From assembly GCA_964561455.1 (NCBI GenBank), contig CAZLPS010000008.1:23307-87306 (forward strand): a stretch of 64,000 nucleotides of DNA. The letters are read 5' to 3'. Source of the stretch: an uncultured Opitutales bacterium. Lineage in GTDB: Bacteria > Verrucomicrobiota > Verrucomicrobiia > Opitutales > JABDGR01. Below the pieces are notes generated by a model, which saw nothing but the letters and a program-made list of their open reading frames with translations, made no database searches and was not told the DNA's origin. Both the position numbers and the translations under genes were made by a program. Of the stretch, positions 25,380-58,891 are shown one piece after another (the stretch's first letter is position 1; every line of letters starts with the position of its first letter).

Positions 25380-27512
25380 ATGAGAAATTCCTGCGCCCTT
25401 CGTCCACGGCTCCCGGCCCTATCCTTAATGGTTTATGCGCTGGTTTTATCCGCCGTGCTGCGCGGAGCCGATGCCGCACCTGCCGACCCCACCACCCCGG
25501 TGGCGTTCCCGTCCGCGCCGGCTGCCGGCCCCGCTGACCCCTGGGCCGTCGTGAATACCACCGCCGCCACCAACCTCGAACAAGTCATCTGGACCGGCAA
25601 GGAATTCGTTGCCGCCGGGGGAAATGTGGTCGTGAATTCGCCTGATGGCTTGAATTGGACCGCCCATGGCGTGGGCAATGGCAAAATGAGCCTCCTAAGC
25701 GTCGCCTACAACGGCAAGGAGTATGTGGTGGTTGGGGCGAACGGAGCCATCGCGTCCTCGCCCGATTTGAATTTCTGGCAATCCCACGAAACCGGCGCCG
25801 TGCGCAAGTTTTCCCTCGTCGTCTGGACCGGAAATAAATTTTTTGCGCTCGGCGATGTCGGCGCCAAAGCCTTTTCCCCGGATGGCGTCACTTGGACCCT
25901 CGGCCCGTCCTCGGGCAACGTGTATTACACCCACGGCGTGTGGAGTGGCACCCAGTTGGTCCTGGGCTCGGCCAAAAACCTGTTCATCTCCAGTGACGCC
26001 GAAAACGTTTCCCTTGCCAAAGGCAATGTGGGCGCGATGCACGATGTGGCCTGGGGTCGGAACCTTTTTGTCGCCGTCGGCGACACGAAGAATGGCGTGA
26101 TGGTTTCGGCAGACGGCGCCAGCTGGGCCGCCCAGAACCCCGGCTTGAAAAACATCCTTTACGGCGTGACCTGGACCGGACAACAATTTGTGGCCGTCGG
26201 CGAAGCCGGCACCATTATCTCCTCGCCTGATGGCACCGTCTGGAAAGCCGCCGCCTCCGGCACCAGGGAAACCCTCACCAGCGTGGCCGGGAACGGCACG
26301 GTGTCTGTCGCCGTGGGCAAAAACGGCGCCATCCTCAGCACCAATGCAAAATTGCTGCAAAATTATCACAGCGCCTCGCTGAGTTCCCTCCCACCAGCGC
26401 CGGGCCAGCGCTTCGGGCCCGCCTCCGGCGGCGGCCCGCTCGACCATTGGACCGTCACCGATGACACCGACACCCGGCCATTCATGCAAATCGCCTGGCT
26501 GAATAATCAATTCGTGGCCACCAGTTGGGACCGTGTTCGCAATTCAGGCGATGGCTTTTCCTGGAACACCCACACCCTTACCGGCCGGTCACTTAACAGC
26601 ATTGCCACCAACGGCAGCCTCTTTGTGGTCGTCAGCGATGTCGGCGAAATTTCCACCTCCCCCGATCTGGAAAAGTGGACCAAACGAACGAGCAGCACCA
26701 CCCTCCGCCTCTTCAGCGTCTTGTGGACCGGCACCCAATTCGAGGCCCTGGGTGACAACGGCATTATCGTCACCTCGGCGGACGGGATCAAGTGGACGCA
26801 GTAATCCCCGTTCACTAGCGCTACTTTTCACCATGGCCTGTGGGCCGGCGACAAGTTTGTCCTCGCGGACTACCGCGGCGTGGACACTTCTCCGGATGGT
26901 CTGAAATGGAGCCGGACGCTCGGCACCACCGATAAAATGATGGACGTTGCCTGGAACGGCAAAGTCTTCGTTGCCGTTGGCTCCGTCGGGGGCGGCGTCT
27001 ATTCCTCGCCTGATGCCGTGACTTGGACCAAGCAATCTCTCCCCACCAACAACGGCTTTGCCGCCATCACTTGGACCGGCAGTGAATTCCTGGCCGGAGG
27101 CGCCACCGGCATCCTCGCCAGTTCGCCGGACGGAACGGCGTGGACCATTCACCTCCTCGATCCCGGCTTCAACATTACCGCCCTCGCGGCCCACAATGGC
27201 ACGGTGGTGCTGGGAACGGATGCCGGAATGCTTCTCATCAACAAAGTGCCTGACTCCACCGCCACGCCCGTGATTTCCCTTGATGTCGGGTCCGCCGGCG
27301 CCCTGGCCCAAGTCACCCTCCATTCCCCGGTTGCCAGTGCAAAGATTTATTACACCGACAATGGCCAGGACCCCACCCCTCAGTCCAACCTCTACACCAC
27401 GCCATTTACCCCGACCCACAACGCTGTCATCAAAGCCCGCGCCTACCTCGATGGCGTCAATCCCAGCGAGGTCGCCGCCGCCGAATTTAAAATCGGCGCC
27501 AGCACCCCCTAG
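25380..27512 (+). pseudogene. third Asp-box beta-propeller + CHB_HEX_C paralog (two-module type) interrupted by one in-frame TAA at 26802-26804
   Basis: ORFs 25290..26804 and 26880..27512 are in the same frame (26880-25290 = 1590). Reading through the TAA gives ...TSADGIKWTQ*SPFTSATFHHGLWAGDKFVLADYRGVDTSPDGLKW... This aligns with ...SSPDGLTWTTGPRTTTVTFHHGLWTRGQF... of the first paralog. ATG 25380 gives MRNSCALRPRLPALSLMVYALVLSAVLRGADA (signal-like). Confidence 0.75.
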
Positions 27513-27644
27513 CTCCGGATCTTTGGCAAAGCCGCCAACCCCCATCCGCAAACATCGAACCCTCGACTTCCATCTTGTAACTTCCCCATTCCCCACACTT
27601 CGTTCTCGCCAATCATTCCAAATTTAGTCTCCTGTCTCACCATT

Positions 27645-27665
27645 TCAAATCTCAAATCTCAAATC
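27645..27665. repeat. perfect tandem heptamer (TCAAATC)x3
   Basis: tcaaatc tcaaatc tcaaatc, read directly from the sequence. It lies in the intergenic region after the third propeller paralog. Confidence 0.95.
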
Positions 27666-27701
27666 CTGCGCCGCCCCCTCCGCCCTTCGCCCTTTGATTA
27701 C

Positions 27702-27729
27702 AATTCGAAATTCGTAATTCAGAATTCCC
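27702..27729. repeat. degenerate tandem heptamer array AATTCnn x4
   Basis: aattcga aattcgt aattcag aattccc. Confidence 0.9.
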
Positions 27730-27743
27730 GCCCGCGCCTTCCT

Positions 27744-27778
27744 TTCTTAATTCTTAATTTTTAATTCTTAATTCCCCC
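27744..27778 (+). repeat. tandem heptamer array (TTCTTAA)(TTCTTAA)(TTTTTAA)(TTCTTAA)(TTCCCCC) abutting the ATG of the triple-YbjQ gene
   Basis: Read directly from the sequence. The array stays in register right up to ATG 27779. Confidence 0.95.
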
Positions 27779-28933
27779 ATGACTCCTCCCCCTCAACTCC
27801 GCTCCGTCCTCACCGGTCTTTCCGGCAACGAAATGTTCTGCTTGCGCCAAAAGGGTTTTTCGCCCGGCGACATCGTCGTCGGCAACAGTGTTCACTCGAT
27901 GGGCTTCCTGGGCGGCCTCGGCGCCGGCCTGCAACGCGCTTTTGGCGGCGAGGTCACGCAAGTCACCGACATCATTCATGAGGGCCGCCAGGCTTCGTAT
28001 GCCCGCATGGCCAAAGAAGCGCAAGACCGCGGCGGCGTGGGAATTGTCGGCGTCACGAGCGAATTAAAGCACATGCGCGGCAATATCGAATTTCTCTCCG
28101 TCGGTTCCTGCGTCCATACGACGGATGGCGGCCCTGAACAAATGGCCTTTACCTCCGATTGCGACGGCCAGGAACTCTATTGCCTCATGGACGCCGGCTA
28201 CACCCCGGTGAAATTTGTCTTCGGCAATGTCGCCTACTCAATCGGCATCGGCGGCGGTTTGATGGGCGGCTTCAAAAGCCTCTCCCGCGGTGAAATTCGC
28301 GAATACAGCGACGTCTTCAATGCCACCCGCCACCTCGCCCTCGACCGCATCATGAAGGAAGCGCAGGCCGCCGGCGCCAATGCGGTGCTTGCGATTGAAA
28401 CGCGCATCATGCCCTTCCAGGGCGTCCACGAAATGCTCATGATGGGCACGGCCGCCCGCCATCCCGCCCTGCCCGACAATCTCCTCCGCGGCCAGCCGGT
28501 GACCAGCGACTTGACCGCTGAAGAATTGTGGAATCTCGCCAACATGGGCTACGCGCCCTTGAAGCTCGTGCTCGGCACGGCCGTCTATTCGCTCGGCGTC
28601 GTCGGCGGCATTATGGCCGCCTTGAAATCTTTTGTGCGCGGCGAAATTAGCGATTTAACCTCCTTAATCTACGACGCCCGCGAACACGCCCTCGGCCTCC
28701 TCAAACGCGAAGCCGAAGCGCTCGGCGCGGACGACGTCGTCGGCATCCGCACCCACGTTCACGAATTCCAGGGCCTCCTCGAATTCATGGCCATCGGCAC
28801 CGCGGTAAAGCGCTTGCCCGGCATTGGCACCGTCAGCCCAACCCTCCCCGCCCAAGCCATCATCCGCGACCGCGAAACCTGGATCAGCGACGACGACTTG
28901 TTCAACGTGCGGGTGGATGATCAGGGGAAGTGA
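27779..28933 (+). CDS. triple YbjQ/UPF0145 (putative heavy-metal-binding) domain fusion protein
   Basis: Three consecutive roughly 110-125-aa units each carry the YbjQ pattern. Examples are ...GGEVTQVTDIIHEGRQASYARMAKEAQDRGGVGIVGV...SVGSCV, ...RGEIREYSDVFNATRHLALDRIMKEAQAAGANAVLAIE...MMGTA, and ...RGEISDLTSLIYDAREHALGLLKREAEALGADDVVGIR...AIGTAV. Confidence 0.75.
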   Translation: MTPPPQLRSVLTGLSGNEMFCLRQKGFSPGDIVVGNSVHSMGFLGGLGAGLQRAFGGEVTQVTDIIHEGRQASYARMAKEAQDRGGVGIVGVTSELKHMRGNIEFLSVGSCVHTTDGGPEQMAFTSDCDGQELYCLMDAGYTPVKFVFGNVAYSIGIGGGLMGGFKSLSRGEIREYSDVFNATRHLALDRIMKEAQAAGANAVLAIETRIMPFQGVHEMLMMGTAARHPALPDNLLRGQPVTSDLTAEELWNLANMGYAPLKLVLGTAVYSLGVVGGIMAALKSFVRGEISDLTSLIYDAREHALGLLKREAEALGADDVVGIRTHVHEFQGLLEFMAIGTAVKRLPGIGTVSPTLPAQAIIRDRETWISDDDLFNVRVDDQGK

Positions 28934-28935
28934 GC

Positions 28936-29187
28936 ATGAGGCAATGTCGCAATTGGAAAAATAAGAAACGTCCCGGTGTCCACCTGAAAGCAGCCGCCCA
29001 TTCCTCGCGACCCGAAGACGTGCAAAACTTTTTTGCCGTGGAATTGCCCAAACTTCCCGGCTGCATGGCGCATGGGCGCACCCGGCGGGATGCTGTGCGC
29101 AACGCCGAGCGGGCGATTGCCGCGTGGGTGCCGACCGCCAAGGAGGACGGCGCGGAAATTCCCTTGCCTCGGGGCAAATTGATGTAA
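28936..29187 (+). CDS. HicB-like (UPF0150) antitoxin-domain protein, orphan
   Basis: ...FFAVELPKLPGCMAHGRTRRDAVRNAERAIAAWVPTAKEDGAEIPLPRGKL matches the HicB-family core (PdLPGC..G.T.eEa..n..eAi..w.e...e.G..iP.P). No hicA-like ORF is adjacent. GTG 28930 is an alternative start that overlaps the upstream stop. Confidence 0.55.
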   Translation: MRQCRNWKNKKRPGVHLKAAAHSSRPEDVQNFFAVELPKLPGCMAHGRTRRDAVRNAERAIAAWVPTAKEDGAEIPLPRGKLM

Positions 29188-29197
29188 GCTTGAACGT

Positions 29198-29839
29198 ATG
29201 CCATTACCCCACTGGCCGGAACTCCGGCAAATATCCCGTTCCCTTGTGCCTCTGGCCGCGCTGGCCTTTCTCGCCGGCTGCGCCGGCCCCGGCTTCCCCG
29301 ACCTCGGCTACACGAGTCTGTTCAACGGCAAAGATCTTACGGGCTGGCAGTATAAGCCCGGAGCAAACGTAATCGCCGGGGTGTTTGACGGCAAAACGGC
29401 GAGCAATGATGCGCGGTACACCATCGAGCAGGGCATCCTGACCACCCATGAGCGCGACCGCAGCCCGGCCGCGAACCAACCCATCCGCCAGCTTTACACC
29501 GTCCAAAAATTTACCGGCGATTTCATCCTCCGGCTGCAATTTCGCGCCGGGGTGAAGGCCGACAGCGGCATCTTTATCGGCACGAAACAATTGCAGTGCC
29601 GCGACTACAGCACCGTGGGGCCGTACACCAAATTGCAGCTCTACAAACCGCAGGACTGGAACCAGATTGAGATTGTCGTCCACGGCAACGCCGCGCGGTG
29701 CACCAACAACGGGGAAGTCCTGGAAGAAGCCATGCCCATTCCCGCCGGGGTGCGCGACATCGGGCTCGAGGCCGACGCCGGGGTGTTGGAATACCGCAAT
29801 ATTGAAATCAAGCTCCTGCCCCCGGAAACACCGGGCTGA
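29198..29839 (+). CDS. DUF1080 (3-keto-disaccharide hydrolase-like) family lipoprotein
   Basis: Lipobox LAFLAGC. LFNGKDLTGWQ near the N-terminus and YRNIEIKLL at the C-terminus are the typical DUF1080 signature ends. Confidence 0.75.
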   Translation: MPLPHWPELRQISRSLVPLAALAFLAGCAGPGFPDLGYTSLFNGKDLTGWQYKPGANVIAGVFDGKTASNDARYTIEQGILTTHERDRSPAANQPIRQLYTVQKFTGDFILRLQFRAGVKADSGIFIGTKQLQCRDYSTVGPYTKLQLYKPQDWNQIEIVVHGNAARCTNNGEVLEEAMPIPAGVRDIGLEADAGVLEYRNIEIKLLPPETPG

Positions 29840-31514
29840 CTTCCAGCGTCTGGCCCGGGCGGAGAATAATGGGATCGCCGTCGGCCGGAACTTCGTCGTT
29901 CTTGAAAATTCGCAACGTGATGGATTCTTTGCCCACGCTCGGTGCGACCCAGCGCCACTGGCCGATTTCCACAAATTCCATGGGCACACCCTTGTCCGGA
30001 TTTAATCCGGGGCCGGCGCCGCGAACAAAGGGCTTGTTGCCAATGCCAATAAGCACATTGGCCGTCAGTGAACAGGCATTGAGCGGATTGCGGCTCGCGC
30101 GCTTGCGGCGGATGGTGTCGGCTTCGCGCGCCAGCAACTCGCCCTGCGTTGGGCCGGCAACCGGCGCGGCAGTGCCAGGCTCGTCCGCGCGCGGCGGCGA
30201 AAAGACGATCGGCGTGTTCTTTTTAATTTCTTCATCCTCCTCCCCCCGCAGGGCGAGCGCCTTGGCCCGCGCATTGCGGCGCAACTCCGAGGCCGTTTCG
30301 CCTTCTGTTGGCAATTCCATGGCGGGACTGGCCGACGTGATTTCAGCCGCTGCGGTAACGGGTGCCTCCACCGGCAGCGGCGCATCCGGCGGCTCCGCCC
30401 GGTCGGTGAGTGAGATCGGCGCGGGTACCGGCGGTTCAATATCCACTTGCGCTGTAACCGGGGTCTCTGGCAGCGGATGCCTGGTTTTGCGCGGGCGACG
30501 GGCGCGAGCCATGATAATTCCGGCCACCGCCGGGGTTTCGCTGCTGGACCGGGTTTGGGCAAAGGCCCGATCCATCATGCGGGTGGATTCCACCGGCGCG
30601 CGTTCGACGGCGGGAGCCTCCACCGGTTCGGGCGCGGGCGCGAGCGCCTTGGCTTCTTCCAAGATCGGCGCCTCCGGCTGGCTCGCGTCCACGGTTGGGC
30701 TCGAAGCCAGGAACGTTGCTTCAGCCGCAGCAGACTCCCCCACTCCCGCTGCCACCAAGACTGGCTCTGCCACGACGACGGGCGCGGCCGCCACCGGCTC
30801 AGGCATGGGAACTTCGGCGCGGACGGGCGCGGGCTGGCGGATGCGAATCCTCTCGGGTTGGGGCGAAGCCACCGCCACGGGTGCGGGCCGGTCCGCGAGC
30901 GTTTGCACATGGGCCGCCAGGCGGCCAAGGGTTTCCTCCAGCACGGCGATCTTAATTTCCGCGGATTTAAATTTTTCCGCCTGATCTTTGCGCAGGCGCT
31001 CCAATTCGCGCTGGGCGGACTGGGCTTCGGCCGCCGCGGCCGTCTGGCGGTTGGTCGCCGCCTCCCGCAAATCCGTTACCACCGCTTCGAGGTTCTTGTG
31101 AATTTCGACCAACGGCGCAAAGCGGGCGTCAAACCGGCGCGCGGAATTTTCCAGCGCGGCATTGGCGCGGGCCGCGTGCTCGACGGCTTCCGCGGCGGCG
31201 CGGGACTGGCGGCGCCAGTCATTCTCGCCACCGGCGGCCGGCAATTCACCTGCCGTTTCGTTGCCGGGCGCAGAACGGCCCGGACGGAACGGCCACGCTT
31301 CAATGGCAAACGGCGTAATCGAGAAAATTGCGCCGAGCGCCACCGCACCGAGACAAAACATCATTTGGCCGACAGTCAGCGTCACCGCAGTGGTCCAAAT
31401 CGCCACCGCTACCAGCACCAAGACGATGTTGCCGGTTATAAATGGCCATTTGGGAACGGAGGGACGGGTGGAGGGAGCGGAAGAAGATGAATTTTGATCG
31501 AATACGGAGAGCAT
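29808..31514 (-). CDS. membrane-anchored coiled-coil / Pro-Ala-Glu-rich protein with compact C-terminal domain, unknown function
   Basis: ATG 31514 gives MLSVFDQNSSS.... This is followed by two or three hydrophobic helices (WPFITGNIVLVLVAVAIWTTAV..., MMFCLGAVALGAIFSITPFAI). Then come a helical segment (AAAEAVEHAARANAALENSARRFD...ELERLRKDQAEKFKSAEIKIAVLEE), a long P/A/E/V-rich linker, and a C-terminal roughly 100 aa (...LIGIGNKPFVRGAGPGLNPDKGVPMEFVEIGQWRWV...). The listed 62-aa N-terminal extension (to 31700) is Arg-rich and contains the terminator of the upstream gene. Confidence 0.6.
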   Translation of the reverse strand: MLSVFDQNSSSSAPSTRPSVPKWPFITGNIVLVLVAVAIWTTAVTLTVGQMMFCLGAVALGAIFSITPFAIEAWPFRPGRSAPGNETAGELPAAGGENDWRRQSRAAAEAVEHAARANAALENSARRFDARFAPLVEIHKNLEAVVTDLREAATNRQTAAAAEAQSAQRELERLRKDQAEKFKSAEIKIAVLEETLGRLAAHVQTLADRPAPVAVASPQPERIRIRQPAPVRAEVPMPEPVAAAPVVVAEPVLVAAGVGESAAAEATFLASSPTVDASQPEAPILEEAKALAPAPEPVEAPAVERAPVESTRMMDRAFAQTRSSSETPAVAGIIMARARRPRKTRHPLPETPVTAQVDIEPPVPAPISLTDRAEPPDAPLPVEAPVTAAAEITSASPAMELPTEGETASELRRNARAKALALRGEEDEEIKKNTPIVFSPPRADEPGTAAPVAGPTQGELLAREADTIRRKRASRNPLNACSLTANVLIGIGNKPFVRGAGPGLNPDKGVPMEFVEIGQWRWVAPSVGKESITLRIFKNDEVPADGDPIILRPGQTLEVSPVFPGAGA

Positions 31515-31653
31515 GGGGCGAAGTGGGCGGCGTCTTACAGCGCGAAGAGCCGCCCTACAGGCGAGGATAACAACGCGCGCGCAACGCACAAGCCAGAAAA
31601 TTATAGCGGCGCAATGCGGCGTCCGCACCCCTTGCTCCGGGCCCAAGCTGGAT

Positions 31654-31687
31654 AAAAAACCACGGCGCGGCTGGCGCCGCGCCGTGG
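31654..31687 (-). terminator. Rho-independent terminator of 31716..32546(-)
   Basis: Perfect 12-bp stem ccacggcgcggc (31660-31671) / gccgcgccgtgg (31676-31687) with a 4-nt loop. On the minus strand it is followed by T6 (A-run 31654-31659 on +). It lies about 30 nt after the stop codon. Confidence 0.75.
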
Positions 31688-31715
31688 GCAAAAAACTCAC
31701 CCATTCGGTGGCGGA

Positions 31716-32546
31716 TCAACCACCGGGATGGGATTTCATATAGGCGTCGTATTTGTCCTTTTCGTCGGTTGAAGTCTTCTTGAGCACTTTGCCGTTGTAT
31801 TTTATCTCGATGTAGTAACCCTCCAGCGTGGTAACGGAAGAGGACGAAGTGTTTCCGGCGCTTCCGCCCGAGGAACCACCTACTGTCCGGCCACCACCGC
31901 CACCACCACCGCGAATCACGCTACCCCCACCACTGTTGACGACCGTCATTTGTTGCCCGCCTGACTGACCGTAGTTGCTTTGGCCACCGCCGGAAGACGT
32001 TGACGAGGAAGTTGAGACGGATTTCACCACGGTGTCGGAGTTGATGACTTTCTTTTCGTTAGGGGCAAGCGAATCCACTGTTTCGGAGCCGGTGATCTCT
32101 TTCATGGTAATTTCCGACTTATTGCCTACCAACGTGCTGGTGTGAGTGTAAACATGCCAGTCCACCTCAAAACCTTCAGTTGCAACCTTCTGGTCATTAT
32201 TCCGGAGGGTGATTTCAACATAGGTTTTGGCTTGGGAGGAGCTGGATGACGTGGAGTTGGAACTTCCCCCGGGAGTTCTCCCGCCGGACTGTCCACCACC
32301 CGCCCGACCGTTTTGATTGCCCGTCGTGGAGCCGCCCCTTCCGCTGCCCGTGCCGGCCGAGGGCGAGGTCGAGCTTACCGTTGGCTCACCCTCAATAATC
32401 TTGGCCGACAGGCCCAAGTTCGGCGGAGTCGGTGGTGGCGGCGTTGCCGCGAACGCGGCACCCAAAGTCATGGCGCCAATGGCGAGCAACGCGCACGTCG
32501 CGCCAAACAGGGAACGAAAATCAGACGGGGTTGGGGGGTATTTCAT
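31716..32546 (-). CDS. secreted Gly/Ser-rich protein, unknown function
   Basis: ATG 32546 gives MKYPPTPSDFRSLFGATCALLAIGAMTLGAAFA (signal-like). Long G/S/T low-complexity tracts are separated by two ordered segments (KTYVEITLRNNDQKVATEGFEVDWHVYTH..., TTLEGYYIEIKYNGKVLKK...). The gene has its own terminator. GC is lower than its surroundings (29/60 in line 32041). Confidence 0.55.
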   Translation of the reverse strand: MKYPPTPSDFRSLFGATCALLAIGAMTLGAAFAATPPPPTPPNLGLSAKIIEGEPTVSSTSPSAGTGSGRGGSTTGNQNGRAGGGQSGGRTPGGSSNSTSSSSSQAKTYVEITLRNNDQKVATEGFEVDWHVYTHTSTLVGNKSEITMKEITGSETVDSLAPNEKKVINSDTVVKSVSTSSSTSSGGGQSNYGQSGGQQMTVVNSGGGSVIRGGGGGGGRTVGGSSGGSAGNTSSSSVTTLEGYYIEIKYNGKVLKKTSTDEKDKYDAYMKSHPGG

Positions 32547-32858
32547 GACTAGAATAAGATTGTGTGATGGGGGATTGTGAGGACTCGTTGATTTTGACAT
32601 AATTATTTTGCTAAGGTAAAGCTCTTTCTACAGCGATTTTTAACTCTTTTTTTTTGCCGCCCCAGCCAGCTTTTCTCGGCGCATTGGCCCACTTTCGGGC
32701 TGAATAAGTTCCAAAAACGCCGCCCGGGGCCCGCATCCCCATCTCCTGCGCCGAGCCCCGCCAGCATACCGATAAATATAGGCTTGCCTCCGGGACCTGA
32801 TTCTTTACCTTGGTAAGCTTTTCTCCATAGCAGACACCATTCGACGACTCCCTGTTCC

Positions 32859-33245
32859 ATGCCTACCATCAATCAGCTCGTCCGGCACCCCCGGCGCGCC
32901 CCGCGCTTTAAGTCCAAGGCTCCCGCCCTGGCGGGCAACCCGTTTAAACGCGGGGTCTGCGTGCAGGTCATGACCCGCACGCCCAAAAAACCGAATTCTG
33001 CCATTCGCAAGGTTGCCAAGGTGCGCCTGACCAACGGCTACGAAGTCATTGCCTACATTCCCGACGAAGGCCATAACTTGCAGGAACACAGCGTGGTGCT
33101 CGTCCGTGGCGGCCGTGTCAAAGACCTTCCCGGTGTCCGTTACCATATCGTGCGCGGTCCGCTCGACTGCGTGGGCGTGGAGAAGCGCCGCCGCAGCCGC
33201 TCCAAGTACGGTGTCAAACGCCCGAAGGAAAAGAAGGCCGCGTAA
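32859..33245 (+). CDS. rpsL: 30S ribosomal protein S12
   Basis: [13 protein letters not shown]...[58 protein letters not shown] is unmistakably S12. Confidence 0.98.
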
Positions 33246-33347
33246 TTCCAGGATCAAAGAAGCAAAGGATCCGAGGATCAAAGGGGGCCAAACCGCCCTT
33301 CCCGTCTTCAAATCTCACTCCCGGTCCCAAACTGTTTTGTTTCTGAC

Positions 33348-33387
33348 TTCTTAATTCTTAAATCTTAATTCTTAATTCCCAAATCCC
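33348..33387 (+). repeat. tandem heptamer array (TTCTTAA)(TTCTTAA)(ATCTTAA)(TTCTTAA)(TTCCCAA)ATCCC abutting the ATG of rpsG
   Basis: Over its first 33 nt it differs from the array at 27744-27776 at only 2 positions. A TCAAATCTCA copy lies 40 nt upstream (33308), echoing the arrangement at 27645. Confidence 0.95.
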
Positions 33388-33861
33388 ATGTCCCGCCGCC
33401 GCCGAGCAGTCAAACGTGAACGCGCCATTGATCCGCGTTACAACAGCCCATTGGTCACCCATTTGGTCAGCACCATCATGCGCGGCGGCAAAAAGACCGT
33501 CGCCCAGCGCGTGGTTTATGGCGCTTTTGAAAAGGTCAGCGAGAAGCTCGAAAAGGGCGATCCGGTGGATCTCCTCATGGGCGCGATGGAAAACGTCCGC
33601 CCGAAACTTGAAGTGAAGAGCCGACGTGTGGGCGGCGCCACCTACCAGGTGCCTGTCGAAATCTCGTTTGAGCGCCAGCAGAGCCTTGCCTTTCGCTGGC
33701 TCGTCGAGGCCGCCCAAGGCCGCAAGGGCATGCCCATGCGTGAAGCCCTCGCCGCTGAAATCGTGGATGCCTACAACAACACCGGCACCGTCGTGAAAAA
33801 GCGCGAAGACGCCCACCGCATGGCCCAAGCCAACCGGGCGTTTGCCCATTTGCGCTGGTAA
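33388..33861 (+). CDS. rpsG: 30S ribosomal protein S7
   Basis: [40 protein letters not shown]...[18 protein letters not shown]...AFAHLRW is the S7 signature. Confidence 0.98.
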
Positions 33862-33880
33862 TGCTTCGCTGAGGCCAGAT

Positions 33881-33912
33881 TATTGTTATACTGCTGTATT
33901 GTTATATTGTTA
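33881..33912. repeat. tandem octamer array TATTGTTA / TACTGCTG / TATTGTTA / TATTGTTA in the rpsG-fusA spacer
   Basis: Read directly from the sequence. An inverted copy (TAACAATA within atacaacaatttaacaata, 33944-33962) lies downstream. Confidence 0.9.
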
Positions 33913-34020
33913 GGCAGCCCAACGGCGGAGTCGTCCCGCACCCATACAACAATTTAACAATAGGGCCGTCATCCCGGCACGAGAACCCCAAGTCTTAAAA
34001 CACCAAACAACTTTCCCGCC

Positions 34021-36201
34021 ATGTCCGCACCCGCACCCGCCACCGCCCTGCCTGCCCTTTCGCCCGCCAATTCGCCGACGCGCCGCTTCCCCTTGGAATA
34101 CACGCGCAACATCGGCATCGCCGCCCACATTGACGCCGGCAAGACGACTACCACCGAGCGCGTGCTCTTCTATGCAGGCGTCATTCACAAGATGGGTGAC
34201 GTACATGACGGCAACACCGTGACCGACTGGATGGAGCAGGAGCGCGAGCGCGGCATCACCATCACGGCTGCCGCCATTTCCGCCGGCTGGACGACCAAGG
34301 AAGGCCCTTATGTCGGGATCGCCCACACCATCAACATCATTGACACCCCCGGCCACGTGGACTTCACGGCCGAGGTCGAACGCTCCCTCCGCGTGCTCGA
34401 CGGCGCAATCGCCGTGTTCTGCGCCGTCGCCGGCGTGCAGCCCCAGTCCGAGACGGTCTGGCGCCAGATGAACAAGTACCGCGTCTGCCGCGTCGCCTAC
34501 GTCAATAAGATGGACCGCACGGGCGCTAATTTCTTCAAAGCGCTTGACGACATCCGCACCAAGCTGCGCGGCAATGCCCACCCGCTGTACATTCCCTACG
34601 GCGCGGCCGACACATTCAACGGCGTCATTGACCTGGTGAAAATGGTCCTCTGCGAATACGACCCGACCGACGTGAGCGGCGTGCGCTACTTCGAAAAACC
34701 CATTCCCGAAAGCCACCTGGCCGAAGCGAAGCTGTGGCGCGACAAGCTCATCGAAGGCCTCGCCGACTTCGATGACGCCCTCGCGGAAAAATTCCTCGAC
34801 GGCAAGGACGTCAGCATTGACGAGCTCCGCAGCGTCATCCGCAAGGCCACCCTCACGGAAAACTTCGTCGGGGTCATTCCTGGCAGCGCACTGAAGAACA
34901 AGGGCGTGCAAATGGTGCTCGACGCCGTCGTCAACTACCTGCCCAATCCGATCGAAGCCCGCCCGATGATTGCCCACCGGGACGACGAAACCACCACGGA
35001 AATCGTTCCCGACGACAAACACAAGGCCATCGGGCTCGTCTTCAAATTATGGACCGACCAGTTCGTCGGCCGCCTGGTCTTCTTCCGTCTTTACGCCGGC
35101 ACGCTCAAGAAGGGCGACACCATGTACAATCCGCGCACCCGCCGCACGGAACGCATTTCGCGCCTCCTCTTCATGAAGGCTGATGAACGCCTCGACGTCG
35201 ACGCCATTTACTCCGGCGACATTTGCGCCATTGTCGGCGCCAAGGACGTCGTGACGGGTGATACGCTCTGCAATGAAGATCTTGATCTGCGCCTCGAGCC
35301 GCCCACCTTCCCTGAGCCCGTCATTTCGATGTCCATTGAGCCGAAGACCAAGGCCGACCAGGAGAAGCTCTCCATTGGCCTGCAGCGCCTTGCCTCGGAG
35401 GATCCGACCTTCCGCCTCACCTCCAATCCCGAAACCGGCCAGACGATCATCGCCGGCATGGGTGAGTTGCACTTGGAAATCATCCGCGACCGTCTCTTCC
35501 GCGAATTCAAGGTTGAAGCCGATGCCGGCCGCCCGCAAATCGCTTATCGCGAAACGATCACCAAGTCCTCCAAGGGCGTGGGTAAATTCATCCGCCAATC
35601 CGGCGGCAAGGGCCAGTACGGCCACGCCGAAATCGTCCTTTCGCCCAACGGCAAGGGGAAGGGCAACGAAGTCATCAATGAAATCGTCGGCGGCACCATC
35701 CCGAAGGAATTCATCAAGCCCACCATCGAGGGTTTCCACGAAGCCGCCAACAATGGCGTCGTCGCCGGCTACCCGGTGATCGACTTCAAGGTGCAGCTCG
35801 TCTTTGGCTCCTTCCACGAAGTGGACTCCAATGAAATGGCGTTCAAGATGGCCGGCATTTTTGCGTTCAAGGACGCGATGAAGAACTGCGCGCCCATTTT
35901 GCTGGAGCCGATCATGAAGGTCGAAGTCGTCACCCCGGAAGAATACCAGGGTGACATCATGGGCGACCTCAACCGCCGCCGTGGCCAGATTCAGGGCATG
36001 GAGACCAAGAACGGTCTCGTGTACATTGCCGCGAACGTGCCGCTGGAAACGATGTTCGGCTATTCGACGGACGTGCGCTCCCTCTCGAAAGGCCGCGCCT
36101 CCTACTCGATGGAGCCGTCGCACTTCGAGCAGGTGCCCGCCAGCCTGCTGACCAAAATCGTCGAAGCCAACGCCTCCCGCGGCGCCGCGCGCACCATCTA
36201 A
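34021..36201 (+). CDS. fusA: translation elongation factor G
   Basis: RNIGIAAHIDAGKTTTTERVLFY (G1 motif), DTPGHVDF (G3) and NKMDR (G4). At 726 aa it has full EF-G length, with a roughly 20-aa Ala/Pro-rich N-terminal extension. Confidence 0.97.
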   Translation: MSAPAPATALPALSPANSPTRRFPLEYTRNIGIAAHIDAGKTTTTERVLFYAGVIHKMGDVHDGNTVTDWMEQERERGITITAAAISAGWTTKEGPYVGIAHTINIIDTPGHVDFTAEVERSLRVLDGAIAVFCAVAGVQPQSETVWRQMNKYRVCRVAYVNKMDRTGANFFKALDDIRTKLRGNAHPLYIPYGAADTFNGVIDLVKMVLCEYDPTDVSGVRYFEKPIPESHLAEAKLWRDKLIEGLADFDDALAEKFLDGKDVSIDELRSVIRKATLTENFVGVIPGSALKNKGVQMVLDAVVNYLPNPIEARPMIAHRDDETTTEIVPDDKHKAIGLVFKLWTDQFVGRLVFFRLYAGTLKKGDTMYNPRTRRTERISRLLFMKADERLDVDAIYSGDICAIVGAKDVVTGDTLCNEDLDLRLEPPTFPEPVISMSIEPKTKADQEKLSIGLQRLASEDPTFRLTSNPETGQTIIAGMGELHLEIIRDRLFREFKVEADAGRPQIAYRETITKSSKGVGKFIRQSGGKGQYGHAEIVLSPNGKGKGNEVINEIVGGTIPKEFIKPTIEGFHEAANNGVVAGYPVIDFKVQLVFGSFHEVDSNEMAFKMAGIFAFKDAMKNCAPILLEPIMKVEVVTPEEYQGDIMGDLNRRRGQIQGMETKNGLVYIAANVPLETMFGYSTDVRSLSKGRASYSMEPSHFEQVPASLLTKIVEANASRGAARTI

Positions 36202-36204
36202 AGC

Positions 36205-36232
36205 GATTTATGATTTAAGAATTATGATTTCG
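36205..36232. repeat. degenerate heptamer array GATTTAT GATTTAA GAATTAT GATTTCG just after the fusA stop
   Basis: Read directly from the sequence. Confidence 0.85.
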
Positions 36233-36292
36233 GAAGCATTTCCGCCATCAAAATTCTCCTTGCGCATTTCCGCGTCTTTGCCACTCTTAACC

Positions 36293-36320
36293 AAGAACTA
36301 AAAACTAGAAACTAAAGCAC
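36293..36320. repeat. degenerate heptamer array AAGAACT AAAAACT AGAAACT AAAGCAC upstream of rpsJ
   Basis: Read directly from the sequence. Confidence 0.85.
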
Positions 36321-36427
36321 TTTTCCTCCCCGTTCTTTTCCAGTTTGATGATTTCTGCTGTTTGGGCGCCCCCGGCGTCCCAAAAGAGAACGCGGACGCA
36401 TTTTTCTCCTCCCAACACTTCCCTCCC

Positions 36428-36736
36428 ATGGCCAACCAGCGCATCCGCATCAAACTGAAGGGTTTCGACTATCGCATCATCGACCAGTCGGCCCTCGACA
36501 TCGTTGAAACCGCCAAGCGCTCCGGCGCCCGCGTCGCCGGCCCCGTGCCGCTCCCGGTCCGCATCGAGAAACTTTCCGTCAACCGCTCCCCGCACGTCGA
36601 TAAGAAGTCCATGGAGCAATTCGAACTGCGCACCCACAAGCGCATCATTGACATCGTCGAACCCACCGCGCAAACCGTGGACGAATTGAAGAAGCTGAAC
36701 CTGCCCGCGGGCGTGGATATTCAGATTACGGTGTAG
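36428..36736 (+). CDS. rpsJ: 30S ribosomal protein S10
   Basis: ATG 36428 gives [44 protein letters not shown]...[12 protein letters not shown], which is S10. The listed ORF start at 36362 adds a non-homologous extension. Confidence 0.95.
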
Positions 36737-57666: not shown

Positions 57667-58590
57667 CTAATAATTAAAAATATAGGCCACGCGCAGCTCC
57701 CAACCGTACGGTCGCGGATGGCTGACCGGCAGATCCACCCCGGCCATGACCACCTGGCCGTGCCCCAGGCCCGTGCGGAAACCCGGCGTCAGCGTGATCA
57801 CCGTTTTGCCGCTGTTGCTGCCGCTCAAATCCGTCTGCCCGTAAATTTCGGCAAACGTCGTAAAGTTCGGCAAAGCGGCGGTGGGCTCCGTCCAGGTCTT
57901 GGCCAGGGAAACATCATAAGCCGTGTCCGTCTCTTTGGAACCAATGATATGCGGCCCGACATAACTGTCACCTTGCAGACTAAAGTAAAGGCCCATCCGA
58001 GTCCATCCCCAGGGCGTCAGGTCTTCCCAGCCGGCCAGCGCATAAGTGACCGTGGTCAGGTCATTGCCGATATTTTTGGCTGGAGAAATGACCTTCAAAT
58101 TCATCGCGTAAGAAGAACCCGGGATGTCAACCAACAGGAGCCGTCCAGCCAGGGCGAAGTTGGCAGCGTCAAAATCGCGATACCCCCGCGTATTGAGCCA
58201 CTCGTCATAAACCGTGGCCGTAATCATGACCCGGCGATTAAAACTTCGGGCGGCCTGGACGTCGAACAGGTCCACTGTGCGGTTCTTGGTGCTGTTGAGG
58301 TCTTGCTGGGTGAGAAAATCCGCCCGAACATCCTGGGCCAGGAAATTGGTCTGCACGCGGAGCAGCGCCATGTCCGGGGCGCCGCCCGGGACTTGCCGCT
58401 TGATCCAGGTTTGGTCCCAACCGTCGGTGAACAAGTTGGCCAGCGTCAGATTCGGCAAGTTTTCTGCGGATGCCTTCTGCGCCTGCAGTGGGCGGCAGAT
58501 TAAGGTCAACGAAAGCACCAAAACCAGCAGACGCGCGACTGGGACGAAGACGCCCCGCCCCCGGCAGGCAGATTGGACTGGGGCGGGCAA
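57667..58590 (-). CDS. outer-membrane beta-barrel-like protein (unknown family)
   Basis: ORF 57667..58761(-). The C-terminus ...WELRVAYIFNY ends in an aromatic residue, as in OMPs. The body shows alternating beta-strand-like patterns. The best signal peptide (MPAPVQSACRGRGVFVPVARLLVLVLSLTLICRPLQAQ) begins at TTG 58590. The ATG-containing upstream part is encoded by a heptamer repeat array and looks non-coding. The start is uncertain. Confidence 0.55.
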   Translation of the reverse strand: MPAPVQSACRGRGVFVPVARLLVLVLSLTLICRPLQAQKASAENLPNLTLANLFTDGWDQTWIKRQVPGGAPDMALLRVQTNFLAQDVRADFLTQQDLNSTKNRTVDLFDVQAARSFNRRVMITATVYDEWLNTRGYRDFDAANFALAGRLLLVDIPGSSYAMNLKVISPAKNIGNDLTTVTYALAGWEDLTPWGWTRMGLYFSLQGDSYVGPHIIGSKETDTAYDVSLAKTWTEPTAALPNFTTFAEIYGQTDLSGSNSGKTVITLTPGFRTGLGHGQVVMAGVDLPVSHPRPYGWELRVAYIFNY

Positions 58591-58723
58591 GATCGCAGAG
58601 TGGCCGAGAGCGGCGTAAGAGGAAGAGAGAGCTTTAATCGCCGTGGAGAACAAACGAAAACCATAAGGCAGGCAAATAAATATGGCCGCCGCCACCAGGG
58701 CCGGGGAGACGGGAGCGGGAGAG

Positions 58724-58758
58724 GAACGTTGAACAACGAACATCGAACATTGAACGTC
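58724..58758. repeat. degenerate heptamer array GAACGTT GAACAAC GAACATC GAACATT GAACGTC
   Basis: Read directly from the sequence. It is upstream of, or overlaps, the listed 5' end of the OMP ORF on the opposite strand. Confidence 0.9.
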
Positions 58759-58842
58759 CAAATTAAGAAGTTGGAGGTTGAAATTTGGAATGGGACGGGA
58801 GTTTTTCGGGGGTAGCCTGCGGCGGGTGAAGTGCTGGATTCA

Positions 58843-58891
58843 GTCAGGAGCTAGGAGATGGGAGACAGGAGTCAGGAGACAGGATACTGGG
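58843..58891. repeat. degenerate heptamer array GTCAGGA GCTAGGA GATGGGA GACAGGA GTCAGGA GACAGGA TACTGGG (six GGA motifs at 7-nt spacing)
   Basis: Read directly from the sequence. It lies in the OMP / MFS divergent intergenic region. Confidence 0.9.

Follow-up and report, generated by a model that had tools for sequence, protein, structure and literature searches.

Two leaders in a 64,000-nucleotide stretch of DNA from an uncultured Opitutales bacterium (contig CAZLPS010000008.1, positions 23,307 to 87,306 of the forward strand; this whole stretch is referred to as the window) carry nearly the same 33-mer immediately upstream of unrelated genes—one encoding a triple-YbjQ protein, the other (rpsG) ribosomal protein S7. 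Our analysis identifies each 33-mer as a short tandem array of the heptanucleotide simple-sequence repeat (SSR) TTCTTAA (equivalent to AATTCTT), an identity overlooked in the preliminary description of this DNA, and as one of many period-7 arrays residing in the spacers of the window. The TTCTTAA array belongs to a known, functionally unsolved class of start-adjacent heptamer repeats. As to its role, we tentatively favor a reading to which we give slightly less than an even chance: that the array is a slippage-made, G-free, unpaired and A/U-rich platform for loading of the 30S subunit independently of Shine-Dalgarno (SD) pairing, resized by slippage.

The first array, TTCTTAATTCTTAATTTTTAATTCTTAATTCCC, occupies positions 27744-27776 on the plus strand and ends 2 nt 5' of the ATG of the triple-YbjQ gene (27779); the second, TTCTTAATTCTTAAATCTTAATTCTTAATTCCC, lies on the same strand at 33348-33380, in the spacer between rpsL and rpsG, and ends 7 nt 5' of the rpsG ATG (33388). 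Both read (TTCTTAA)4.4 and end in TTCCC, with the third unit altered to TTTTTAA in the ybjQ leader and to ATCTTAA in the rpsG leader, and the program Tandem Repeats Finder assigned to each a period of 7, 4.4 copies and 91% matches. The positions, the strand and the two mismatches (31/33 identity) agree with the preliminary description, as does the unrelatedness of the downstream genes, which Pfam confirms; its statement that an ATG follows 3-8 nt after the arrays is right as to closeness but not as to the exact gaps of 2 and 7 nt. The linkers between array and ATG are CC (ybjQ) and AAATCCC (rpsG), neither of which contains a canonical ribosome-binding site. Searching the window with up to three mismatches to the 33-mer returned exactly these two sites, against 0.00 expected from 100 dinucleotide shuffles, and the heptamer TTCTTAA itself occurs eight times against 2.4 expected—a count reached by no shuffle. 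Chance or low complexity is ruled out by these shuffle tests on heptamer and 33-mer, and the earlier argument against chance is further borne out by the recurrence of the repeat before many unrelated genes of the lineage, in sense orientation and next to the start. Because the sequence of both arrays is also present in independent JGI, ENA and Logan assemblies (L002, L004-L006, L008), with the ybjQ array identical in L002, an assembly artefact is ruled out as well.

A census of tandem repeats by period places the two arrays in a wider context. Arrays of period 7 number eight in the window; they are intergenic without exception, gather in a few spacers and are built from the units TCAAATC, AATTCGA, TTCTTAA, AACTAAA, GAACATC, CAGGAGA and others. 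Period 4 yielded three arrays, period 5 one and periods 8-12 none, while the nine arrays of period 6 all have GC-rich units and lie mostly inside open reading frames (ORFs). The features of heptanucleotide SSRs of the short tandemly repeated repetitive (STRR) type are found here: at least three tandem units, an intergenic location, several different units in one genome and copy-number variation in unit steps. The ybjQ leader holds further heptamer arrays 5' of the TTCTTAA array (27642-27727, plus strand), comprising (TCAAATC)3 at 27645-27665, (CCCTTCG)2.7 at 27676-27694 and an AATTCGA/AATTCGT/AATTCAG array at 27702-27727, the last of which is 72% complementary to the TTCTTAA array of the same leader. 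Directly 5' of the rpsG array stands a degenerate leading unit, TTCTGAC (33341-33347, plus strand), and the CTGAC junction so formed recurs in two other copies, on contig L138 and in the Ereboglobus genome L014.

The preliminary description had proposed a composite leader, in which a TCAAATCTCA box would accompany the array upstream of both genes, and this part of the proposal was rejected. Exact matches to the box number three in the window, two of them overlapping within one (TCAAATC)3 array, and allowing one mismatch gives five matches against 2.5 expected, a value that 10 of 100 shuffles reach. Moreover, the box lies 99 nt from the array in the ybjQ leader vs 40 nt in the rpsG leader, it was not conserved in the strain variants of the rpsG spacer in which we checked it, and the similarity between the regions upstream of ybjQ and rpsG is limited to the array. 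What stands of the alternatives originally offered—a functional cis-element or a small dispersed repeat family—is a dispersed family and/or start-linked element, a fair description once the composite leader is removed. A TTCTTAA said to precede a GTTCnnn array is indeed present (58763-58769, minus strand), but a single heptamer is within chance. The leader in question, that of the minus-strand gene 57667-58664, spans 58704-58884 and holds (TCTCCTG/ACTCCTG)n at 58845-58884, (GTTCRAT)n at 58731-58755 and CTCCCGT-like units at 58704-58722, all pyrimidine-rich on the sense strand.

Within the lineage, of which about 100 kb of sequence was examined, the placement of the repeat is strict. All start-proximal TTCTTAA-like arrays in the lineage loci are in sense orientation and lie 2-8 nt from the start, and the genes behind them—encoding S7, L23, PheT, RsmE, an aldolase, YbjQ and secreted GDSL esterases—are mutually unrelated. 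Exact matches to the 32-mer variant seen at rpsG, ATC third unit included, turned up in 20 metagenome contigs. Among contigs from the samples of the window organism, the 32-mer variant ends 4 nt before pheT (L134) and 8 nt before a secreted GDSL esterase gene, whose paralogue is preceded at 4 nt by a related second array (L138). The Ereboglobus metagenome-assembled genome L014 carries two outward-facing copies in a 117-nt divergent spacer, 6 nt before a class II aldolase gene and 5 nt before rsmE, and contig L150 has further arrays before rplW and, in degenerate form, before rplP. Antisense copies occur directly after stop codons, at 36208-36228 of the window (after fusA) and at 16745-16772 of L150 (after rplD). 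The former belongs to a purine-strand GATTTAT/GAATTAT array at 36205-36230 on the plus strand (minus strand ATCATAATTCTTAAATCATAA) that begins 4 nt after the fusA stop, and it represents the after-stop antisense placement of a TTCTTAA-type repeat.

The genes behind the two window arrays were assigned with Pfam. The triple YbjQ_1 gene (27779-28933, plus strand, 384 aa) matches PF01906 in three stretches (E = 4e-45), and rpsG (33388-33861, plus strand, 157 aa) matches Ribosomal_S7. Since rpsL, encoding ribosomal protein S12 (32859-33245, plus strand) and likewise confirmed by Pfam, lies 143 nt 5' of rpsG, the rpsG array is located inside the str gene cluster. The rpsG, rplW and rplP arrays are all internal to ribosomal-protein clusters, and the corresponding spacers measure only 18-33 nt in relatives; this arrangement favors a role in translation over one as a promoter.

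Strain variation offers a view of how the arrays change. Contig L150 encodes an S7 that is 98% identical to that of the window, with rpsG differing at 33% of third positions. The ybjQ array, with four units in the window, has ten perfect units in L150—a difference of 42 nt, or 6 x 7—and still ends in AATTCCC-ATG, and the rpsG array of L150 reads TTCTTAA-TTTTTAA-TTTTTAA-TTTTTCC, about 3.7 units of altered sequence. Upstream of rpsG in L151-L153, with S7 proteins 90-94% identical, no array was found, and the rpsL-rpsG spacer of L151 is just 33 nt long. Conservation in related genomes, which had been named as a check on the functional proposal, was thus seen in close strains, where the array is kept, but not in slightly more distant ones, where it is lost. 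Three haplotypes with an identical S7 protein, differing at 23% of rpsG third positions, vary in 2 of 33 columns of the array vs 39 of 101 columns of the adjacent upstream spacer (Fisher p = 3.5e-4). Taken together, the few variable array columns among strains and the missing array in relatives indicate that over short spans the array is preserved or homogenised and that over longer ones it disappears. A separate observation concerns the flank of the rpsG array: rpsG DNA does not differ between the window and L009 (0/474 nt), but about 45 nt 5' of the unchanged array are replaced. The replaced segment, defined by comparison with L009 and L007, corresponds to window 33305-33347, and the sequences suggest that local replacement or recombination may have occurred beside the array.

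The arrays are embedded in a genome of about 60% GC (in the window), whose S7 is approximately 80% identical to that of Lacunisphaera, Oleiharenicola and other Opitutaceae/Opitutae, which marks the organism as an Opitutae-like verrucomicrobium. Across 108 called gene starts from the window and relatives (L150-L153, L001 and L002), an SD-like motif was present at 12. The share of G at these starts is 6-27% over positions -40 to -1 and mostly 10-20% over the last 25 nt; it is just 6-8% in the final two positions, where C stands at 57% (-2) and 69% (-1). With SD-like motifs at so few starts, translation initiation here appears not to depend on SD pairing, and the leaders are C/U-rich and G-poor. 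Typical start contexts are (T/C)CCATG or CCACCATG-like, and in many leaders the sequence is closer to the anti-SD strand (CCTCC) than to the SD itself. A motif search in native leaders gave a modest enrichment of CTTTTA/ACCTTT-type words, which we do not rely on.

At the RNA level, the arrays are G-free and A/U-rich, and the predicted minimum free energy (MFE) and centroid folds of the two leaders leave array and AUG wholly unpaired. The fold z-scores (0.34 for rpsG and 0.25 for ybjQ) speak against a stable RNA structure in the two window leaders. Rfam searches at both arrays, at gathering and E<=1 thresholds, returned no match to an RNA family, riboswitch or ribosomal-protein leader, and a search for tRNA and tmRNA found none. 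A sigma-70-type promoter scan of 27400-36500 (-35/-10 boxes, 16-18 nt spacing, A at position 2 and T at position 6 of the -10) placed no site in either array, and on direct reading no TAnnnT hexamer occurs within the array; a sigma-70 promoter in the arrays was rejected on both counts. An intrinsic terminator was likewise rejected, as neither array shows a terminator-like site and no hairpin abuts the window arrays. In the E. coli str operon, the S12-S7 spacer contains a structured RNA that serves as the S7 autoregulatory operator. Such an operator was rejected for the rpsG array, given that the 33-mer also precedes unrelated genes, the spacer is not conserved (33 nt in L151), the array is unpaired and Rfam gives no match.

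In other lineages, and in one spacer of L150, the repeat also appears in paired form. The rplD-rplW spacer of L150 (16737-16876) is 130 nt long vs 18-21 nt in relatives, and is made up of two arrays, one antisense and following the rplD stop, the other sense and leading up to the rplW start. Complementarity between the 37-nt arms, which take in both the stop and the start codon, is 89% (MFE -36 kcal/mol, z = -5.4). The predicted fold is suggestive of RNase III processing or of a device that couples translation. Moreover, termite-type contigs (L132, L133, L142, L143, L147, L148 and L149) share a dispersed module whose length is about 147-191 nt (185-191 nt in five of the seven copies) and which lies between unrelated co-directional genes. 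It runs from an inverted TTCTTAA array right after a stop through two GC hairpins, the conserved center AAAAACAAAATGACTCAC and two further GC hairpins, GCGCGCGAAGCGCGC and GCCGCCGCAGGCGGC, to a sense array that precedes the next start, and its ends are terminal inverted arrays of 33-37 nt with the ATC variant seen in the rpsG copy of the window. The L132 module folds as one long hairpin (MFE -87 kcal/mol, z = -12). No shared flanking duplication was seen among the seven modules, although their TTAA-rich ends would hide short ones. For the window arrays themselves, no inverted partner of the rpsG array was found in 33240-33400, and that of the ybjQ array amounts to a weak 72% match upstream. 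As they stand, the window arrays do not qualify as a MITE-like element (miniature inverted-repeat transposable element), the paired terminal repeats having been found only in contigs of other lineages. A comparable arrangement from another unit does exist in the rpsG-fusA spacer of the window (33881-33969, plus strand), where a (TATTGTTA)4 array and its inverted partner ATACAACAATTTAACAATA enclose a GC-rich core as AT-rich arrays; this layout is repeated in L150, and the spacer is only 45 nt in L151 and 24 nt in L152.

Beyond the lineage, a genome scan with AATTCTTAANNNTTAATTCTTAATT gave matches in at least 120 genomes, with approximately 0.07 expected by chance in our own calculation. Among the matches listed, the phyla include Bacteroidota, Cyanobacteria, Ignavibacteria, the phyla of the Planctomycetes-Verrucomicrobia-Chlamydiae (PVC) group, Acidobacteriota, the Candidate Phyla Radiation (CPR), Treponema and others; the arrays listed are often flanked by other AATTNNN heptamer arrays, and the cyanobacterial loci mix AATTCTT arrays with CCCAATG/CCCAATT arrays. 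With crude ORF calling, the contexts of 134 listed arrays from more than 120 genomes comprise 70 antisense after a stop, 16 sense at a start and 21 antisense at a start. A universal cross-phylum leader element was consequently rejected, the commonest context being antisense after the stop, with no sense bias at starts under this crude ORF calling. Viral contigs served as a rough control, as the collection differs from bacterial genomes: AATTCTT arrays occur at 41 loci there, three heptamers of the same composition at 24-34, an octamer at 15 and a hexamer at more than 118. The similar frequency of same-composition heptamers indicates that the unit itself is not special in these contigs, and the idea of AATTCTT as a specially favored heptamer is unsupported by this control. 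Heptamer SSRs are over-represented in genomes (PMC4692102), and the cross-phylum abundance of AATTCTT reflects this known over-representation and not a conserved element. At several Bacteroidales loci (L062, L069, L071, L119, L124 and L140/L144), AATTCTT arrays often stand directly 5' of a TAnnTTTG motif shortly before a gene. We take this motif to be the Bacteroidetes -7 promoter box, in which case the repeat may occupy a promoter-upstream position in Bacteroidales.

The platform reading rests on the combination of an SD-less context, strict sense placement at starts, positions within ribosomal-protein clusters and short-term conservation. The pattern of variation suggests that arrays originate and alter their length through replication slippage in 7-nt steps, and that one array variant has been copied between leaders. 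The lineage would keep a single placement—sense, in the last 30-70 nt of a 5' leader or intercistronic spacer, with the end 2-8 nt before the start. An array that is G-free and A/U-rich could not fold, and the start codon would thereby stay single-stranded; the array itself would act as a putative platform to which the 30S subunit binds in standby or S1-type fashion when SD pairing is absent. It would also put UAA stops in all three frames just before the AUG, and a gain or loss of units would adjust the level of expression, not turn it on or off. Several points weigh against this proposal. The translational role is putative, and any G-free sequence is predicted to be unpaired, so that the fold result lends it weak support. 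The array is dispensable, as it is missing before rpsG in relatives with 90-94% S7 identity, and its conservation among strains could stem from gene conversion between dispersed copies and not from selection. Furthermore, across phyla the repeat shows no preference for leaders (16 sense vs 21 antisense arrays at starts, 70 antisense after stops), and heptamers of the same composition are about as frequent as AATTCTT in viral contigs (24-34 vs 41 loci).

Several of these points are shared by the notion that the arrays are functionless by-products—slippage SSRs tolerated in spacers, of which near starts only the G-free strand survives since leaders must avoid G and structure. We consider this possible, if on the unlikely side. 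The lability of copy number and unit, the missing array in near relatives, the many different heptamer units sharing the same spacers, and the commonness of heptamer arrays in many phyla and of same-composition heptamers in viral contigs all agree with it, but the lineage's start-proximal arrays are without exception sense and within 2-8 nt of the ATG, and the neighboring spacer varies about 6-fold more than the array. Independent slippage also does not explain an identical 32-mer with the ATC third unit at unrelated genes and in another genus. The positions close to starts could alternatively reflect a DNA-level promoter or UP-like element, with the AT-rich array recruiting RNA polymerase and transcription beginning a few bases before the ATG to give leaderless or near-leaderless mRNAs. 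The outward arrays of L014 lie about 44 nt apart in their 117-nt divergent spacer, leaving little room for two separate promoters, three of four copies have a CTTAAT at 6-7 nt from the start, and several Bacteroidales arrays directly precede what is presumably the -7 box. However, no sigma-70-type site or TAnnnT hexamer was found in the arrays, the rpsG, rplW and rplP copies are internal to clusters that are tightly packed in relatives, the distance from array to ATG extends to 9-55 nt in termite-type copies, and other genes of the lineage have no -10-like signal 6-8 nt before their starts. We judge a promoter role unlikely.

A shade less probable still is that the window arrays are solo arms of an inverted-repeat, MITE-like module, remnants that lost a partner with which they would have formed long double-stranded RNA coupling or processing adjacent cistrons. 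The termite-type modules, with their terminal inverted TTCTTAA arrays and four GC hairpins, exemplify such an element, the complementary arms of L150 bridge the rplD stop and the rplW start, the outward-facing arrays of L014 are arranged in the same way, and the window rpsG-fusA spacer repeats the array-core-inverted-array scheme with another unit. Set against this, the window arrays have no inverted partner beyond the weak match upstream of ybjQ, a target-site duplication is not visible, no associated transposase was identified, and the gain or loss of units in 7-nt steps at one and the same locus points to slippage and not to transposition. It appears highly improbable to us that the array is an operator through which a sequence-specific regulator, binding RNA or DNA, controls the array genes as a regulon, be it a protein that reads the heptamer or an entry site for RNase E. 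The identical 32-mer before several unrelated genes and the frequency of translation-related ones (S7, L23, L16, PheT and RsmE) would suit an operator, and an unidentified heptamer-binding partner has been speculated upon for Nostoc (bioRxiv 10.1101/2022.06.06.494920). Unit and number nevertheless drift freely between close strains (TTCTTAA to TTTTTAA, 4 to 10 units), the downstream genes have no common function, and nothing in the window ties a candidate binding protein to the arrays. The platform reading can also be extended to a bolder, doubtful form, in which the TTCTTAA array would be a portable initiation cassette replacing the SD site in Opitutae-type Verrucomicrobia, read by S1 or a lineage-specific factor and spreading as the arms of outward-facing inverted modules; paired modules would then join a stop to the next start, as in the L150 rplD-rplW spacer, giving coupling or RNase III processing across newly inserted spacers.

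Additional features were observed in the window and in strain variants. A conserved element 5' of rpsJ (ATG 36429) spans window 36330-36405 on the plus strand (CCGTTCTTT..CAGTTTGAT..TTTGGGCGCC..GGCG..CCCAAA.AGAGAACGC..GCGCATTTTT) and is also present in L150, L151, L153 and L001. Its consensus fold has 26 pairs and -21.4 kcal/mol, with no compensatory changes, and the region 36330-36405 has no Rfam match; it may be an undescribed leader of the S10 gene or a BoxA-like element. Just 3' of rpsJ, an IS630-like gene pair (a helix-turn-helix protein and a DDE_3 transposase) is found in one strain variant, represented by L001 (8383-9325) and L003 (4413-5355), and is absent from the window and L004/L005. 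Finally, window 31613-31768 contains a GC-rich hairpin with a T-run (CCACGGCGCGGCGCCAGCCGCGCCGTGG TTTTTT, minus strand, 31687-31660) and weak, sub-threshold Rfam matches to small RNAs; the hairpin and T-run are most simply explained as an intrinsic terminator 3' of the minus-strand ORF 31716-32600.

The literature searched contained no relevant paper on the exact heptamer and no prior description in this phylum, but comparable repeats are known. The closest case is the TAACTGA heptamer, found as direct repeats in marine Beggiatoaceae and in some Cyanobacteria and Bacteroidetes (MacGregor 2015, PMC4679880). Its arrays lie 1 nt upstream of SD-less starts, including those of fusA, rplC, rpsD, rpsA and pheS, and binding by S1, Csp or CsrA has been proposed (PMC4679880). 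Both repeats form tandem 7-nt units in 2-6 copies, sometimes split by a variant unit, run mostly forward and end a few nt before an SD-less start; both are met in ribosomal-protein operons and in front of phe-tRNA synthetase genes, the genes that follow being otherwise unrelated, and for both the placement differs between phyla and function is unproven. Sense orientation, an end within a few nt of the start and no SD in between are thus shared, but the unit is TTCTTAA and not TAACTGA, which makes the present array an analogue from a different repeat family. It further differs in being G-free in a host of the Verrucomicrobiota (Opitutae-like) with about 60% GC, and in occurring also as outward-facing inverted pairs able to join a stop to the next start. 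The platform idea put forward here is, by analogy, the one proposed for the Beggiatoaceae repeats. With STRR sequences the array shares the amplification of several heptamer units in the intergenic DNA of one genome, variation of length and sequence among close relatives, and no established function; STRR units, however, usually contain G/C, and no set position or orientation with respect to starts has been described for them, unlike TTCTTAA, whose placement is strict within the lineage. A preprint on heptamer repeats in Nostoc leaves their role open (bioRxiv 10.1101/2022.06.06.494920).

A/U-rich, unstructured initiation regions are reported to function without SD pairing, as in S1-dependent standby binding and in SD-less initiation in Bacteroidetes (PMC3121790, PMC3155529). 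Such regions resemble the present leaders in having no SD, a local drop in GC and an unstructured surrounding of the start codon, and differ in being neither tandem repeats nor copied between genes; binding of S1 by TTCTTAA arrays is putative. The termite-type modules (about 147-191 nt) recall another class. Correia or NEMIS elements of Neisseria are short, dispersed intergenic sequences with terminal inverted repeats of about 26-37 nt that often lie beside gene starts, are co-transcribed and form long hairpins. The modules resemble these elements, but the window copies are solo, the terminal repeats are themselves simple tandem repeats, and neither a target-site duplication nor a transposase was found.

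How start codons are chosen in the many phyla lacking SD pairing is an open question, and start-adjacent heptamer repeats such as STRR and TAACTGA have been noted for decades without a demonstrated function. The lineage described here represents an unusually clean natural experiment in this respect—a G-free repeat in a GC-rich genome with strict placement, sense before starts and antisense after stops, that occurs as 4 vs 10 units in close strains, alongside empty orthologous sites and paired stop-start versions in ribosomal-protein operons. If the arrays do not tune translation, they illustrate how strongly slippage shapes bacterial leaders; if they do, they would constitute a simple rheostat of expression that can readily evolve, and would be of use as a part in the engineering of Verrucomicrobia.

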